A stretch of DNA of 64,000 nt from NCBI RefSeq assembly GCF_050920415.1, contig NZ_CP169309.1, one strand, 5' to 3'. The stretch's first letter is position 1, and each line of letters begins with the position of its first letter. The notes under the pieces were generated by a model, which was given only the letters and a program-made list of their open reading frames with translations, had not been told where the DNA came from and searched no databases. The position numbers were made by a program, and so were the translations under genes. Below are positions 48,792-54,782 of this stretch, piece after piece. The DNA comes from Escherichia coli (GTDB lineage: Bacteria > Pseudomonadota > Gammaproteobacteria > Enterobacterales > Enterobacteriaceae).

Positions 48792-49047
48792 TTACAGCCA
48801 CAGCACAATGATCCATATTTATATTTTTTCTCCGGGTGGGTGATGCCAGTCGGCATGTTTTACCTACTTGTCTGCATGGTGACTCGTTGGCGAGAACAGA
48901 GGCGGAATTGGTTACAATTGTCCGGGAATTCTTGTTATTTTTTACTGTATTGTCGTGTCGGGTGATAGGACGTTAAGAATATCGCTGGATCTCGCCAGTG
49001 ACGTCTGTTTCTGCTACAGTGCCCGTTTTACGGCAAACGGCTTGGGT

Positions 49048-50043
49048 ATGGCTTCATTAAAGGATGTCGCACGCCTGGCGGGAGTGTCGATGATGACTGT
49101 CTCCCGGGTGATGCATAATGCAGAATCTGTGCGTCCTGCAACGCGTGACCGCGTATTGCAGGCAATCCAAACCCTGAATTATGTTCCTGATCTTTCCGCT
49201 CGTAAGATGCGCGCTCAGGGACGTAAGCCGTCGACTCTCGCCGTGCTGGCGCAGGATACTGCTACCACTCCTTTCTCTGTTGATATTCTGCTTGCCATTG
49301 AACAAACCGCCAGCGAGTTTGGCTGGAATAGTTTTTTAATCAATATTTTTTCTGAAGATGACGCTGCCCGCGCGGCACGTCAGCTGCTTGCCCTCCGTCC
49401 GGATGGCATTATCTATACTACAATGGGACTGAGGCATATCACGCTGCCTGAGTCTCTGCATGGTGAAAATATTGTATTGGCGAACTGTGTGGCGGATGAC
49501 CCAGCGTTACCCAGTTATATCCCTGATGATTACACTGCCCAATATGAAGCAACACAGCATTTGCTCGCGGCGGGCTATCGTCAACCGTTATGCTTCTGGC
49601 TACCGGAAGGTGCGTTGGCAACAGGGTATCGTCGGCAGGGATTTGAGCAGGCCTGGCGTGATGCTGGACGAGATCTGGCTGAGGTGAAACAATTTCACAT
49701 GGCCATAGGTGATGATCACTACACCGATCTCGCAAGTATACTCAATGCCCACTTCCAGTCTGGAAAACCAGATTTTGATGTTCTGATTTGTGGTAACGAT
49801 CGCGCAGCCTTTGTGGCTTATCAGGTTCTTCTGGCGAAGGGGGTACGTATCCCGCAGGATGTCGCCGTAATGGGCTTTGATAATCTGGTTGGCGTCGGGC
49901 ATCTGTTTTTACCGCCGCTGACCACAATTCAGCTTCCACATGACATTATCGGGCGGGAAGCTGCATTGCATATTATTGAAGGTCGTGAAGGGGGAAGGGT
50001 AACGCAGATCCCTTGCCCGCTGTTGCTCCGTTGTTCCACCTGA
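49048..50043 (+). CDS. cscR: LacI-family sucrose operon repressor CscR
   Basis: N-terminal HTH (MASLKDVARLAGVSMMTVSRV) plus periplasmic-binding-like fold; start chosen at this Met rather than the ORF-track start 31 codons upstream. Confidence 0.85.
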   Translation: MASLKDVARLAGVSMMTVSRVMHNAESVRPATRDRVLQAIQTLNYVPDLSARKMRAQGRKPSTLAVLAQDTATTPFSVDILLAIEQTASEFGWNSFLINIFSEDDAARAARQLLALRPDGIIYTTMGLRHITLPESLHGENIVLANCVADDPALPSYIPDDYTAQYEATQHLLAAGYRQPLCFWLPEGALATGYRRQGFEQAWRDAGRDLAEVKQFHMAIGDDHYTDLASILNAHFQSGKPDFDVLICGNDRAAFVAYQVLLAKGVRIPQDVAVMGFDNLVGVGHLFLPPLTTIQLPHDIIGREAALHIIEGREGGRVTQIPCPLLLRCST

Positions 50044-50050
50044 TATTATG

Positions 50051-51484
50051 TTACCCCAGTTGCCAGAGTGCTCCATGTTGCAGCACGGCCACTCCGTGGG
50101 CGGCATAGAGCGACAGTTCCCGTTCTTCTGGCTGCGGATAGATTCGGCTACTCATCACAGCTTCCCCGTCGTTAATAAATACTTCCACGGATGATGTATC
50201 GATAAATATCCTTAGGGCGAGCGTGTCACGCTGCGGGAGGGGAATACTACGGTAACCATCTAAATTCTCGTGTGGGTAATACCGCCACAAAACAAGTCGC
50301 TCAGATTGGTTATCAATATACAGCCGCATTCCCGTGCCGAGCTGTAATCCGTAATGTTCGGCATCGCTGTTCTTCAGAGCCCAGTGCAACTGAATCTCAA
50401 CCGCTTGCGCGTTTTCCTGCAAAACATATTTGTTGCTGATTGTGTGGGGAGAGATTGATTGATGCTGCTGGCGTAACGACTCAGCTTCGTGTACCGGGCG
50501 TTGTAGGAGTTTGCCATTGCTCTCTGAAAGCTCGCGCGCCAGCGTCATGCAGCCTGCCCAGCCTTCACGTTTTGAGGGCATTGGCGATTCCCACATATCC
50601 ATCCAGCCGATAACAATACGCCGACCATCCTTCGCTAAAAAGCTTTGTGGTGCATAAAAGTCATGCCCATTATCAAGTTCAGTAAAATGCCCGGATTGTG
50701 CAAAAAGTCGTCCTGGCGACCATATTCCGGGTATTACACCACTTTGAAAGCGATTTCGATAATTGTATCCCTCGGCATTCATTCCCTGCGGGGAAAACAT
50801 CAGATAATGTTGATCGCCAAGGCTGAAAAAGTCCGGACATTCCCACATATAGCTTTCACCCGCATCAGCGTGGGCCAGTACGCGATCGAAAGTCCATTCA
50901 CGCAATGAACTGCCGCGATAAAGCAGGATCTGTCCCGTGTTGCCTGGGTCTTTCGCCCCGACTACCATCCACCAGGTGTCGGCTTCACGCCACACTTTAG
51001 GATCGCGGAAGTGCATGATTCCTTCTGGTGGAGTGAGGATCACACCTTGTTTCTCGAAATGAATACCATCCCGGCTGGTAGCCAGACATTGTACTTCACG
51101 AATTGCATCGTCATTACCTGCACCATCGAGCCAGACGTGGCCGGTGTAGATAAGTGAGAGGACACCATTGTCATCAACAGCACTACCTGAAAAACACCCG
51201 TCTTTGTCATTCTCGTCTCCTGGCGCTAGCGCAATAGGCTCGTGCTGCCAGTGGATCATATCGTCGCTGGTGGCATGTCCCCAGTGCATTGGCCCCCAGT
51301 GTTCGCTCATCGGGTGATGCTGATAAAACGCGTGATAACGATTGTTAAACCAGATCAGGCCGTTTGGATCGTTCATCCACCCGGCTGGAGGCGCGAGGTG
51401 AAAATGGGGATAAAAAGTATTCCCCCGGCGCTCGTGAAGTTTTGCTAGTGCGTTTTGCGCCGCATGCAATCGAGATTGCGTCAT
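50051..51484 (-). CDS. cscA: Sucrose-6-phosphate hydrolase / invertase CscA (GH32)
   Basis: GH32 N-terminal catalytic motif (WMNDPNGL) and the RDP and EC motifs; start uncertain by 3 codons. Confidence 0.9.
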   Translation of the reverse strand: MTQSRLHAAQNALAKLHERRGNTFYPHFHLAPPAGWMNDPNGLIWFNNRYHAFYQHHPMSEHWGPMHWGHATSDDMIHWQHEPIALAPGDENDKDGCFSGSAVDDNGVLSLIYTGHVWLDGAGNDDAIREVQCLATSRDGIHFEKQGVILTPPEGIMHFRDPKVWREADTWWMVVGAKDPGNTGQILLYRGSSLREWTFDRVLAHADAGESYMWECPDFFSLGDQHYLMFSPQGMNAEGYNYRNRFQSGVIPGIWSPGRLFAQSGHFTELDNGHDFYAPQSFLAKDGRRIVIGWMDMWESPMPSKREGWAGCMTLARELSESNGKLLQRPVHEAESLRQQHQSISPHTISNKYVLQENAQAVEIQLHWALKNSDAEHYGLQLGTGMRLYIDNQSERLVLWRYYPHENLDGYRSIPLPQRDTLALRIFIDTSSVEVFINDGEAVMSSRIYPQPEERELSLYAAHGVAVLQHGALWQLG

Positions 51485-51699
51485 TTTAATCATCCTGGTT
51501 AAGCAAATTTGGTGAATTGTTAACGTTAACTTTTATAAAAATAAAGCCCCTTATCTTTATAAATGTGATTAATATCACAAATGTTAACGTTAACTATGAC
51601 GTTTTGTGATCGAATGTGCATGTTTTAGTAAATCCATGACGATTTTGCGAAAAAGAGGTTTATCACTATGCGTAAGTCAGATGAATTTGAGGGAAAAAA

Positions 51700-52614
51700 A
51701 TGTCAGCCAAAGTATGGGTTTTAGGGGATGCGGTTGTCGATCTCTTGCCTGAATCAGACGGGCGCCTACTGCCTTGTCCTGGCGGCGCGCCAGCTAACGT
51801 TGCGGTGGGAATCGCCAGATTAGGCGGAATAAGTGGGTTTATAGGCCGGGTGGGTGATGATCCTTTTGGCGCGTTAATGCAAAGAACGCTGCTAACGGAG
51901 GGAGTCGATATCACGTATCTGAAGCAGGATGAATGGCACCGAACATCCACGGTGCTTGTCGATCTGAACGATCAGGGGGAACGTTCATTTACGTTTATGG
52001 TCCGCCCTGGTGCCGATCTTTTTTTAGAGACGACTGACTTGCCCTTCTGGCGACATGGCGAATGGTTACATCTCTGTTCTATTGCGTTGTCTGCTGAACC
52101 TTCGCGTACCAGCGCATTTACTGCGATGACGGCGATCCGGCATGCCGGAGGTTTTGTCAGCTTCGATCCCAATATTCGTGAAGATCTGTGGCAAGACGAG
52201 CATTTGCTCCGCTTGTGTTTGCGACAGGCGCTACAACTGGCGGATGTCGTCAAGCTCTCGGAAGAAGAATGGCGACTTATCAGCGGAAAAACACAGAACG
52301 ATCGGGATATATGTGCTCTGGCAAAAGAGTATGAGATCGCCATGCTGTTGGTGACTAAAGGTGCAGAAGGGGTGGTGGTCTGTTATCGAGGACAAGTTCA
52401 CCATTTTGCTGGAATGTCTGTGAATTGTGTCGATAGCACGGGGGCGGGAGATGCGTTCGTTGCCGGGTTACTCACAGGTCTTTCCTCTACGGGATTAGAG
52501 ACCGATGAGAGAGAAATGCGACGAATTATCGATCTCGCTCAACGTTGTGGAGCGCTTGCAGTAACGGCGAAAGGGGCAATGACAGCGCTGCCATGTCGAC
52601 AAGATCTGGAATAG
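51700..52614 (+). CDS. cscK: Fructokinase CscK (PfkB/ribokinase family)
   Basis: 304 aa; PfkB signature (DSTGAGDAFVAG). Confidence 0.9.
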   Translation: MSAKVWVLGDAVVDLLPESDGRLLPCPGGAPANVAVGIARLGGISGFIGRVGDDPFGALMQRTLLTEGVDITYLKQDEWHRTSTVLVDLNDQGERSFTFMVRPGADLFLETTDLPFWRHGEWLHLCSIALSAEPSRTSAFTAMTAIRHAGGFVSFDPNIREDLWQDEHLLRLCLRQALQLADVVKLSEEEWRLISGKTQNDRDICALAKEYEIAMLLVTKGAEGVVVCYRGQVHHFAGMSVNCVDSTGAGDAFVAGLLTGLSSTGLETDEREMRRIIDLAQRCGALAVTAKGAMTALPCRQDLE

Positions 52615-52685
52615 TGAGAAATAAACGGCGAGGCCGTTCTTGTCTCTGAATAGGACGTGAATATTTTAACGACAGGCAGGTAATT

Positions 52686-53933
52686 ATGGCACTGAATATA
52701 CCATTCAGAAATGTGTACTATCGTTTTGCATCCAGTTACTCATTTCTCTTTTTTATTTCCTGGTCGCTGTGGTGGTCGTTATACGCTATTTGGCTGAAAG
52801 GACATCTAGGGTTGACTGGGACGGAATTAGGTACACTTTATTCGGTCAACCAGTTTACCAGTATTCTATTTATGATGGTCTACGGCATCGTCCAGGATAA
52901 ACTCGGTCTGAAGAAACCGCTTATCTGGTGTATGAGTTTCATCCTGGTCTTGACCGGACCGTTTATGATTTACGTTTATGAACCGTTACTGCAAAGCAAT
53001 TTTTCTGTAGGTCTAATTTTGGGGGCGCTCTTTTTTGGCTTGGGGTATCTGGCGGGCTGCGGTCTGCTTGATAGCTTCACCGAAAAAATGGCACGAAATT
53101 TTCATTTCGAATATGGAACAGCGCGCGCCTGGGGATCTTTTGGCTATGCGATTGGCGCGTTCTTTGCTGGCATATTTTTCAGTATCAGTCCCCATATCAA
53201 CTTCTGGTTGGTTTCGCTATTTGGCGCTGTATTTATGATGATCAACATGCGTTTTAAATATCAGGATCAGCAGTGCGTAGCGGCAGATGCGGGAGGGGTA
53301 AAAAAAGAGGATTTTATTGCAGTTTTCAAGGACCGAAACTTCTGGATTTTCGTCATATTTATTGTGGGGACGTGGTCTTTCTATAACATTTTTGATCAAC
53401 AGCTCTTTCCTGTTTTTTATGCAGGTTTATTCGAATCACACGATGTAGGAACGCGCCTGTATGGTTATCTCAACTCATTCCAGGTTGTACTCGAAGCGCT
53501 GTGCATGGCCATTATTCCTTTCTTTGTTAATCGGGTAGGGCCAAAAAATGCATTACTTATCGGTGTTGTGATTATGGCGTTGCGTATTCTTTCCTGCGCA
53601 CTGTTCGTTAATCCCTGGATTATTTCATTAGTGAAGCTTTTACATGCCATTGAGGTTCCACTGTGTGTCATTTCCGTCTTCAAATACAGCGTGGCAAACT
53701 TTGATAAACGCCTGTCGTCGACGATCTTTCTGATTGGTTTTCAAATTGCCAGTTCGTTGGGGATTGTGTTGCTTTCAACGCCGACTGGAATACTTTTTGA
53801 CCATGCAGGTTACCAGACGGTTTTCTTCGTAATTTCGGGTATTGTCTGCCTGATGTTGTTATTTGGCATTTTCTTCCTGAGTAAAAAACGTGAGCAAATG
53901 GTGATGGAAACGCCTGTACCTTCTGCAATATAG
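52686..53933 (+). CDS. cscB: Sucrose:H+ symporter CscB (MFS, LacY-like)
   Basis: 415 aa, 12-TM oligosaccharide:H+ symporter family. Confidence 0.9.
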   Translation: MALNIPFRNVYYRFASSYSFLFFISWSLWWSLYAIWLKGHLGLTGTELGTLYSVNQFTSILFMMVYGIVQDKLGLKKPLIWCMSFILVLTGPFMIYVYEPLLQSNFSVGLILGALFFGLGYLAGCGLLDSFTEKMARNFHFEYGTARAWGSFGYAIGAFFAGIFFSISPHINFWLVSLFGAVFMMINMRFKYQDQQCVAADAGGVKKEDFIAVFKDRNFWIFVIFIVGTWSFYNIFDQQLFPVFYAGLFESHDVGTRLYGYLNSFQVVLEALCMAIIPFFVNRVGPKNALLIGVVIMALRILSCALFVNPWIISLVKLLHAIEVPLCVISVFKYSVANFDKRLSSTIFLIGFQIASSLGIVLLSTPTGILFDHAGYQTVFFVISGIVCLMLLFGIFFLSKKREQMVMETPVPSAI

Positions 53934-54368
53934 ACGTAAACTCTTTCCGGTTGTTGTCGATAGCTCTATATCCCTCAACCGGAAAATAATAATACCAAAA
54001 TGCTTAGCGCGGCTAATAATCGCCTAATCCAAACGCCTCATTCATGTTCTGGAACAGCCGCTCAAATGTACTCAGGATACGCGGTTCGCTGATTTCCAGG
54101 AAATTGTCGTAATTCAGCGACCTGTCCCGTGTATCACGGGCCTGCTAATCCATCAAGGAATGCATTGCGGAGTGAAGTATCGAGTCAAGCCAGATTTCGC
54201 GATCAGGATTCTGTGTGATGATTACATTGCCAGGCCCGGGGCTGTTTAGTCATCGCCGCACAGTGCTGAGATTTCAACCTGTTGCAGGGAAAATGAGTAG
54301 ATTTAGGGCAAGTGTGCTGCCAAACCCAACTTTTACGCGGGGAAGGTAGATTTCGTTGGAAGGATAAA

Positions 54369-54383
54369 TGGTGTCCCCTGCAG
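54369..54383 (-). repeat. att core: 15-nt copy of the 3' end of tRNA-Arg argW (CTGCAGGGGACACCA on the minus strand)
   Basis: Exact match to the recalled argW 3' end; no complete tRNA gene here, so this is the duplicated core at the int-distal prophage junction. Confidence 0.7.
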
Positions 54384-54456
54384 ACATCTACTTGAAGCGA
54401 CAGGGGATTGATTGGAATGGTGTTTTTTAGATGTGAGAAATATTTTACCCGCTATT

Positions 54457-54657
54457 TTACCCATTGGCGCGGCTTAAGAGCTTATTTTTGAATTCACAAT
54501 GGTCACGATATAACCATCTTGCTCGCCCGTGGATAACTTTGGCTTTTGGCAGGTCGCCGGACTTAATCCGGTCATAGATGAAGGTTTTACCAAAGCCAGT
54601 ATCGGCCATGATGAATTTCAAATCAACCAGTGAATCAGGCTGTAGTTCGTGTTGCAT
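54457..54657 (-). CDS. torI: Excisionase / recombination directionality factor TorI (AlpA-like winged helix)
   Basis: 66-aa product MQHELQPDSLVDLKFIMADTGFGKTFIYDRIKSGDLPKAKVIHGRARWLYRDHCEFKNKLLSRANG matches my recollection of KplE1 TorI. Confidence 0.8.
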   Translation of the reverse strand: MQHELQPDSLVDLKFIMADTGFGKTFIYDRIKSGDLPKAKVIHGRARWLYRDHCEFKNKLLSRANG

Positions 54658-54701
54658 GAGTGCTATCTCCGAATAGGGAATCGAACCTGCAAATCAGGCA
54701 A

Positions 54702-54722
54702 TAAAAAACCGCATTGATGCGG
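54702..54722 (-). terminator. Rho-independent terminator downstream of the leftward early operon
   Basis: ccgca/tgcgg hairpin followed on the minus strand by T6. Confidence 0.55.
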
Positions 54723-54782
54723 CGATGGTAGGTCTGGATATCATTGAGAAATGAACAGGCCTCATCGAGTGTGAGGCTGTGG

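Follow-up and report, generated by a model that had tools for sequence, protein, structure and literature searches.

Among described systems, the closest to the locus analysed here is the integration module common to the KplE1 prophage of Escherichia coli K-12 and the phages HK620, Sf6 and Kapi1, in which the gene for the recombination directionality factor (RDF) lies by attR and the integrase gene by argW at the far end of the prophage (PMC2951348, PMC8787464), attP itself being located between int and xis in Kapi1, Sf6, HK620 and KplE1 (PMC8787464). The KplE1 version has a 16-nt core, an intS promoter within attL and torI as its last gene, and contains five GTTCG-type TorI sites as well as TAAA-containing IntS arm sites (PMC2951348, PMC3509656). 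The TorI pentamers (GTTCG, GATCG or GTCCG) usually form phased arrays. It has been proposed that excision in this module is switched chiefly through control of RDF production (PMC2951348).

Here we describe a junction found within a 64,000-nt stretch of the E. coli chromosome (hereafter the window). The interval is very probably the attR of a lambdoid prophage carrying an HK620/Sf6/KplE1-type module in argW, with a second tRNA-like fragment that belongs to the phage-borne torI leader. The junction type is already known, being textbook for this module and annotated in K-12; the leader fragment is the subject of most of what follows.

Prophage end next to the csc genes

The window includes the valU-lysV and alaXW tRNA clusters of the E. 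coli chromosome at 7.7-11 kb and csc sucrose genes, assigned from ORF translations and RefSeq names in relatives, at 48.9-53.9 kb. The full sucrose-utilisation cluster cscR, cscA, cscK, cscB (48955-53933) adjoins the prophage end, and both are placed in the hypervariable argW-dsd region of E. coli. From cscB to attR, the 435-nt bacterial flank (53934-54368) consists of non-coding debris, whose counterpart in related genomes is annotated as a DUF4942 fragment and hypothetical proteins; the first ~8 nt of this flank differ from strain to strain.

Prophage DNA starts at 54363 and reads leftward (Table 1), with ORFs corresponding to torI, Ead/Ea22-like, Gp157, RecT and SieB proteins, an N-like product and lambda-like cI and cII. 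Whereas KplE1 of K-12 is a 10.2-kb remnant lacking the immunity region, the window prophage, with its lambda-like cI/cII/N genes and early-left region, looks like a full lambdoid prophage. On the minus strand at 61216-62011, between the N-like gene and the lambda-like cI, two unrelated ORFs occupy the place of rexB/rexA in lambda: one of 123 aa has a hydrophobic C-terminus and only a weak CorA-like match in PADLOC (E=0.004), the other, of 145 aa, is without a match, and the pair may represent superinfection-exclusion or defence cargo.

Table 1. Features of the prophage end, in window coordinates
Feature	Position	Strand	Remarks
attR core	54363..54383	-	last 15 nt of argW plus phage attP identity
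P arm of attR	54384..54456	-	IntS arm-type repeats and C-side sequence
torI (hkaC / Sf6 gene 18)	54457..54657	-	66-aa recombination directionality factor, reads towards core
Shine-Dalgarno GGAGA of torI	54666..54670	-	
T-arm-like element	54676..54692	-	16-mer at 54677-54692; conserved core CAGGTTCGATTCCC at 54676-54689
TTGC-N5-TTGC	54689..54701	-	aligns with the 13-nt 'cII protein' site of the HK620 record, 1689-1701
Intrinsic terminator of upstream 114-aa gene	54698..54723	-	stem 54708-54723, T-run below
CII gene, lambda-like	63172-63468		window prophage

The attR core, P arm and torI

The last 15 nt of argW (CTGCAGGGGACACCA, read from a related E. coli genome) are found on the minus strand at 54369-54383 without mismatch and occur only once in the window, a second copy not being found there; by calculation, both strands of 64 kb should yield ~1e-4 exact 15-mer matches. 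Identity to the phage attP extends over 21 nt, 54363-54383 (GATAAATGGTGTCCCCTGCAG / …ACCATTTATC), because the BLAST match to HK620 and Sf6 begins at 54363. The first 6 nt of the flank (TTTATC) match the phage P' arm, making the junction repeat 21 nt long here, as against 15-16 nt in K-12 and NZ_CP025869; in K-12, the 15-nt attR copy is carried in RefSeq as the pseudogene pawZ. An ORF of 43 aa (54333-54464, minus strand) crosses the core. Its counterpart in free phages, hkaB/Sf6 gene 17, spans attP; integration swaps one end of this ORF, and in a prophage it is probably not a genuine gene.

The P arm contains two copies of the IntS arm-type repeat GGGTAAAAT, at 54442-54450 and 54454-54462, which overlap the torI stop codon, so that TAAA-containing arm-type repeats (GGGTAAAA) are present between torI and the core (54442-54462); the core-proximal C-side sequence is GTAGATGT. 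The arm-type call compares the window sequence with the TAAA-containing motif of PMC2951348, and both the TorI-site and the IntS arm-type motifs agree with that description.

The 66-aa ORF is 100% identical to TorI of K-12, HkaC of HK620 and gp18 of Sf6, as well as to the solved TorI structure (PDB 1Z4H, 'Tor inhibition protein'). Located 73 nt from the core, this TorI-family RDF is the last gene of the module and is oriented towards attR. TorI (54460-54657) has no Pfam-A match at E<=0.001, and relatives carry the annotations AlpA-family protein or excisionase. ARAGORN detects no tRNA between 11013 and 64000 of the window, and neither an integrase domain among the prophage ORFs scanned nor an integrase-like ORF in the window ORF lists is found. 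The original prediction, which had claimed an exact 15-nt reverse complement of the argW 3' end, a TorI-like excisionase about 70 nt inside the element and the lack of both a full tRNA and an integrase at this end, is thus borne out on all these points.

Layout in free phages and related genomes

In the free phages HK620 and Sf6, the attP-xis segment matches window 54363-54723 at ~97.5% identity, and across HK620, Sf6, Kapi1, HK633, IME10 and others the identity to this block is 96-98%. Phage records annotate within the block the attP core, hkaC/gene 18, hkaB/gene 17 and pI, a putative integration promoter, with the integrase gene on the opposite side of attP. In HK620, Sf6, Kapi1, HK633 and IME10, which are P22-like (Lederbergvirus), the attP core, hkaB/hkaC and the putative pI/cII site take corresponding positions; the genes upstream of the terminator are mosaic, and there the window matches HK97, HK022 and 434, unlike the HK620-type phages.

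Two genomes with the same cscB-attR-torI junction show what stands at the other end. In NZ_CP025869 a P22-like prophage of 44.5 kb ends in tailspike, acyltransferase, intS, argW and yfdC, while the remnant in NZ_CP043414 is 3.6 kb long and its intS, a pseudogene, adjoins argW; CPS-53/KplE1 of K-12 has the same gene order as these relatives. KplE1 also shares with the window the insertion site, core, P arm, layout and the torI leader with its tRNA-like 16-mer, and its TorI is 100% identical; the differences are a degenerate terminator upstream of the leader in K-12 and the bacterial flank, which is dsdC in K-12 and the csc sucrose island in the window. The KplE1-type layout that had been proposed for this end is therefore supported by the attR junction and by the relatives and K-12 with intS-argW at the far end; for the window prophage itself, judging from these relatives, intS and argW (expected sequence TTCCTGCAGGGGACACCATTTATCAGTTCG) would lie at its far end, beyond the 64 kb.

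Because the free-phage order is xis(torI)-attP-int, integration parts the two genes. This end keeps torI together with the P arm and, from the argW 3' end, a copy of 15-21 nt; intS, with its own promoter inside attL, would come to lie beside the restored argW at the far end, beyond the window.

Tandem islands at argW were observed in other genomes, of several species (L092, L099 and L106), where the argW-type core after xis is followed directly by the int-proximal arm of another element; this second arm has repeated ACGGGTAT or GTTCG sites and then ATG.

A T-arm-like element in the torI leader

Upstream of torI, the minus-strand 16-mer TTGCAGGTTCGATTCC equals argW nt 47-62 exactly, and in argW it is located directly 5' of the 15-nt core, with a 1-base overlap and in the same orientation. 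The calculated expectation for exact 16-mer matches is ~3e-5; the only other match in the window at <=2 mismatches is a tRNA-Lys T-arm, and at least two matches (with up to two mismatches) were obtained in none of 100 shuffles. The 16-nt argW T-arm match reported in the original prediction is thus real and exact, although its coordinates, 54678-54693, were one too high (54677-54692). The element sits 294 nt inside the prophage, on the far side of xis from the core, between the intrinsic terminator and the torI Shine-Dalgarno sequence (SD), and its first 4 nt form the second TTGC of the box at 54689..54701.

The terminator is the left mosaic boundary of the integration module. A search of viral contigs with the Xis alignment gave 80 loci (L011-L090), all with 100% identical TorI, which were used for polymorphism and mosaic boundaries. 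At least three types of upstream gene and terminator join the common sequence at the same T-run (~74 IMG/VR loci with identical TorI), and the leader therefore belongs to the integration module. The 16-mer is present in KplE1 of K-12 and in most of the ~74 IMG/VR loci, a few having point variants. Recurrent variants of the E. coli leader are ATTGCC to ATTACC, in many loci, and, more rarely, GATTCCA, GATTACC and GGTTTGATT.

Taken with the copies in free phages, this makes the second fragment a conserved piece of the phage excisionase leader; a reading as the scar of another insertion is not supported.

Conservation of the leader motif

To follow the element beyond E. coli, a survey anchored on the Xis protein rather than on the motif covered 6 phage lineages and 19 usable loci drawn from one-genome-per-species bacterial contigs, with Xis identities in the protein alignment ranging from 36% to 100%. 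In ~16 of the 25 lineages, the motif GTTCGATT, with core (CA)GGTTCGATTCC(C), is found 3-7 nt upstream of the xis SD. It reads ccaaGTTCGATTCCCaaaccGGAGA in Salmonella g341c and Emek (Xis 48-52% identical) and ctaGGTTCGATTCCCagcaaaGGAG in Erwinia phiEt88 (Xis 36-39%), and is also present in prophages of Edwardsiella, Pantoea, Leclercia, Citrobacter and Phytobacter. Erwinia Midgardsormr38 carries two tandem copies, CAGGTTCGATTCCCgtCAGGTTCGATTCCCacc; in modules of this Erwinia type (L005, i.e. Midgardsormr38, 2805-2845, and also L185 and L214) the motif is doubled with a 16-nt period (CAGGTTCGATTCCCgt x2).

Within 400 nt upstream of xis, the motif is absent from 9 of the 25 lineages and is therefore dispensable; where motif-less lineages were inspected, the SD directly adjoins a terminator or an upstream ORF. 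ARAGORN finds no tRNA in any of the 25 loci.

In a 13-lineage alignment, two of whose sequences were found via the motif itself (a slight ascertainment), mean pairwise column identity reaches 0.97 across GTTCGATTCC; the first xis codons score 0.57, the spacer 0.44 and the upstream flank 0.32. A scan of viral contigs with the motif returned 121 matches: all 15 of the 15 CA-preceded copies are followed by a TorI-like ORF, and the G-preceded matches are genuine T-arms of phage tRNAs. Matches outside TorI modules (L127, L168 and L218) lie in unrelated high-GC contexts and were set aside, as were the Pseudomonas F116-like AlpA homologues, whose int/xis arrangement is different.

For 13 consecutive nt, the family consensus CAGGTTCGATTCC is the same as argW, and these nt correspond to the 5' strand and loop of the T-arm. 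Where the E. coli phages have an additional TTG, other lineages have TTC or TTT, and argW does not share the conserved C at the end of the motif. Since a neutral relic would be lost as xis drifts to below 40% identity, the motif is under selection: by its conservation, the leader core CAGGTTCGATTCC(C) is evidently kept by purifying selection across divergent TorI-family modules.

Several functional readings of the motif were considered and rejected. A tRNA or tRNA pseudogene at this end is contradicted by ARAGORN and Rfam, as there are only 15- and 16-nt fragments and no cloverleaf. The leader matches no Rfam family and RNAalifold predicts zero pairs, that is, no conserved RNA structure, so the ideas of a T-arm hairpin and of SD sequestering were dropped. 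A conserved upstream ORF was rejected by eye, the frame over the motif varying among lineages; for sigma-70, sigma-54 and sigma-32 promoters there is no scored site, and hexamers, also by eye, are not conserved.

Origin of the likeness to argW

Of the alternative accounts of the argW likeness, the one that survives best is chance, the motif being a regulatory sequence such as a promoter spacer or GTTCG operator that happens to resemble a T-arm, with TTGC contributed by the cII-type box. GTTCG is indeed the TorI recognition pentamer and TTGC is part of the box annotated in HK620; moreover, the 5' extension is TTCCA or TTTCA in other lineages, so that the 16-nt match is lineage-specific, and the conserved trailing C (CCC) does not come from argW. 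Against this, the 13-nt identity of the family consensus includes the argW-specific CAGG stem and ATT loop variant, and the calculated chance of such a match, allowing for the search space, is ~1e-4. All modules target argW, no TorI-family module targeting another tRNA having been found, and the T-arm stays the same where hosts differ in the argW acceptor: in argW of the variant-acceptor GGGAACGCCA hosts it is identical to that of the usual argW, leaving no host T-arm variation to track. Coincidence is accordingly quite improbable.

The motif could instead derive from an attP with at least 30 contiguous nt of argW, into which an xis-P-arm cassette was inserted and whose T-arm piece was later co-opted. 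That the two pieces abut exactly in argW, with a 1-nt overlap and in the same orientation, would suit such a split, as would the match of the cross-lineage consensus to 13 consecutive nt of argW. However, in many lineages a degenerate T-loop persists on the side of attP nearest the core (ATTCGATGTA followed by TGCAGG, as against GGTTCGATTCC followed by TGCAGG in argW), and this T-loop-like TTCGATGT(A/C), which aligns with the argW T-loop, is still by the core; an insertion therefore did not remove the T-loop from there, and the leader motif is a second copy rather than half of a split site. We regard the split as very improbable.

Least probable is the older or nested attachment scar suggested in the original prediction, namely that an earlier element in argW, with a crossover in the T-arm, left the 16-mer inside the present prophage. 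The exact 16-nt identity to a stretch that adjoins the core in the tRNA and reads the same way, and the tandem islands known at argW in other genomes, speak for it, but the 16-mer stands at the same place in the free HK620 and Sf6 genomes and in K-12, no partner repeat is found in the window (nor a second copy of either fragment), no integrase domain is found in the prophage ORFs scanned, only torI and the P arm, ~97.5% identical to HK620, separate the two fragments, and the motif is conserved across divergent Xis, down to 36-50% Xis identity, a distance over which a neutral scar would not have survived.

What may read the motif

With the motif taken as a selected part of the excisionase leader, it would be a cis-regulatory element of torI, possibly of int too, read as DNA or primary sequence. 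Three readers are candidates, namely a CII-type activator at pI, TorI and the core-binding domain of IntS, with the odds divided roughly evenly among them.

The HK620 record labels this leader stretch pI, a putative integration promoter, and marks a cII-binding site in it. As at lambda pI, a TTGC direct-repeat box is located upstream of recombination genes, and the window prophage encodes a lambda-like CII. The canonical CII box has the spacing TTGC-N6-TTGC, straddles the -35 region and goes with a weak -10, whereas the box here is TTGC-N5-TTGC, with no good -10 and no sigma-70-like site scored; lambda is without a T-arm-like motif, which in TorI modules is the conserved part. Roughly a quarter of E. 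coli loci have TTAC as their first half-site, and the box is missing in distant lineages that retain the motif. Spacing, polymorphism, distant absence and the lack of a sigma-70-like site together weaken the CII/pI reading.

The motif contains one TorI pentamer, GTTCG, and two, 16 nt apart, in the Erwinia phages, so that autoregulation by TorI is possible. In phiEt88, the recognition helix of Xis is divergent and the P' arm is without GTTCG repeats, yet the motif is unchanged, which argues against a pure TorI operator. Finally, the motif equals the argW-side (B) half-site of attB in a family whose modules all target argW, making a site for the IntS core-binding domain conceivable; against a simple Int core site, the real attP C-sites are more variable than the motif.

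A more specific proposal, which we put forward tentatively and consider unlikely, is that the 13-nt mimic of the argW T-arm is read by the core-binding domain of IntS, by TorI via GTTCG or by a host factor, and thereby gates xis.

Discussion

Direct repeats of tRNA 3' ends flank islands with P4-family integrases, and such repeats at integrase islands were reportedly described by Reiter in 1989 and Williams in 2002. The junction resembles P4-type islands in that the phage copy of the tRNA 3' end keeps the gene intact and the displaced copy marks the far junction; it differs from them by the second, non-adjacent copy of the T-arm 5' strand and loop, which selection has conserved.

In the literature covered, no description of the cis-regulation of torI itself was found. 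A full-text search with the motif string returned only papers on eukaryotic tRNAs, and the later KplE1 and torI papers hold nothing on the leader; a key paper on torI transcription lies outside this coverage. Menouni et al. (2013, PNAS) reportedly dealt with termination upstream of torI. A conserved T-arm mimic upstream of an excisionase gene is apparently a small undescribed curiosity.

For this strain, the junction confirms that the hypervariable argW-csc/dsd region harbours a lambdoid prophage like HK620 and Sf6, which helps annotation. For the TorI family, the strongly conserved 10-14-nt element in front of torI offers a clear target for mutagenesis. If the T-arm mimic did gate xis, the integrase might for instance act as a repressor of its RDF, linking the arm-type sites at the torI 3' end with the motif at its 5' end, and the decision to excise would be coupled to the very sequence that the phage targets in the chromosome.
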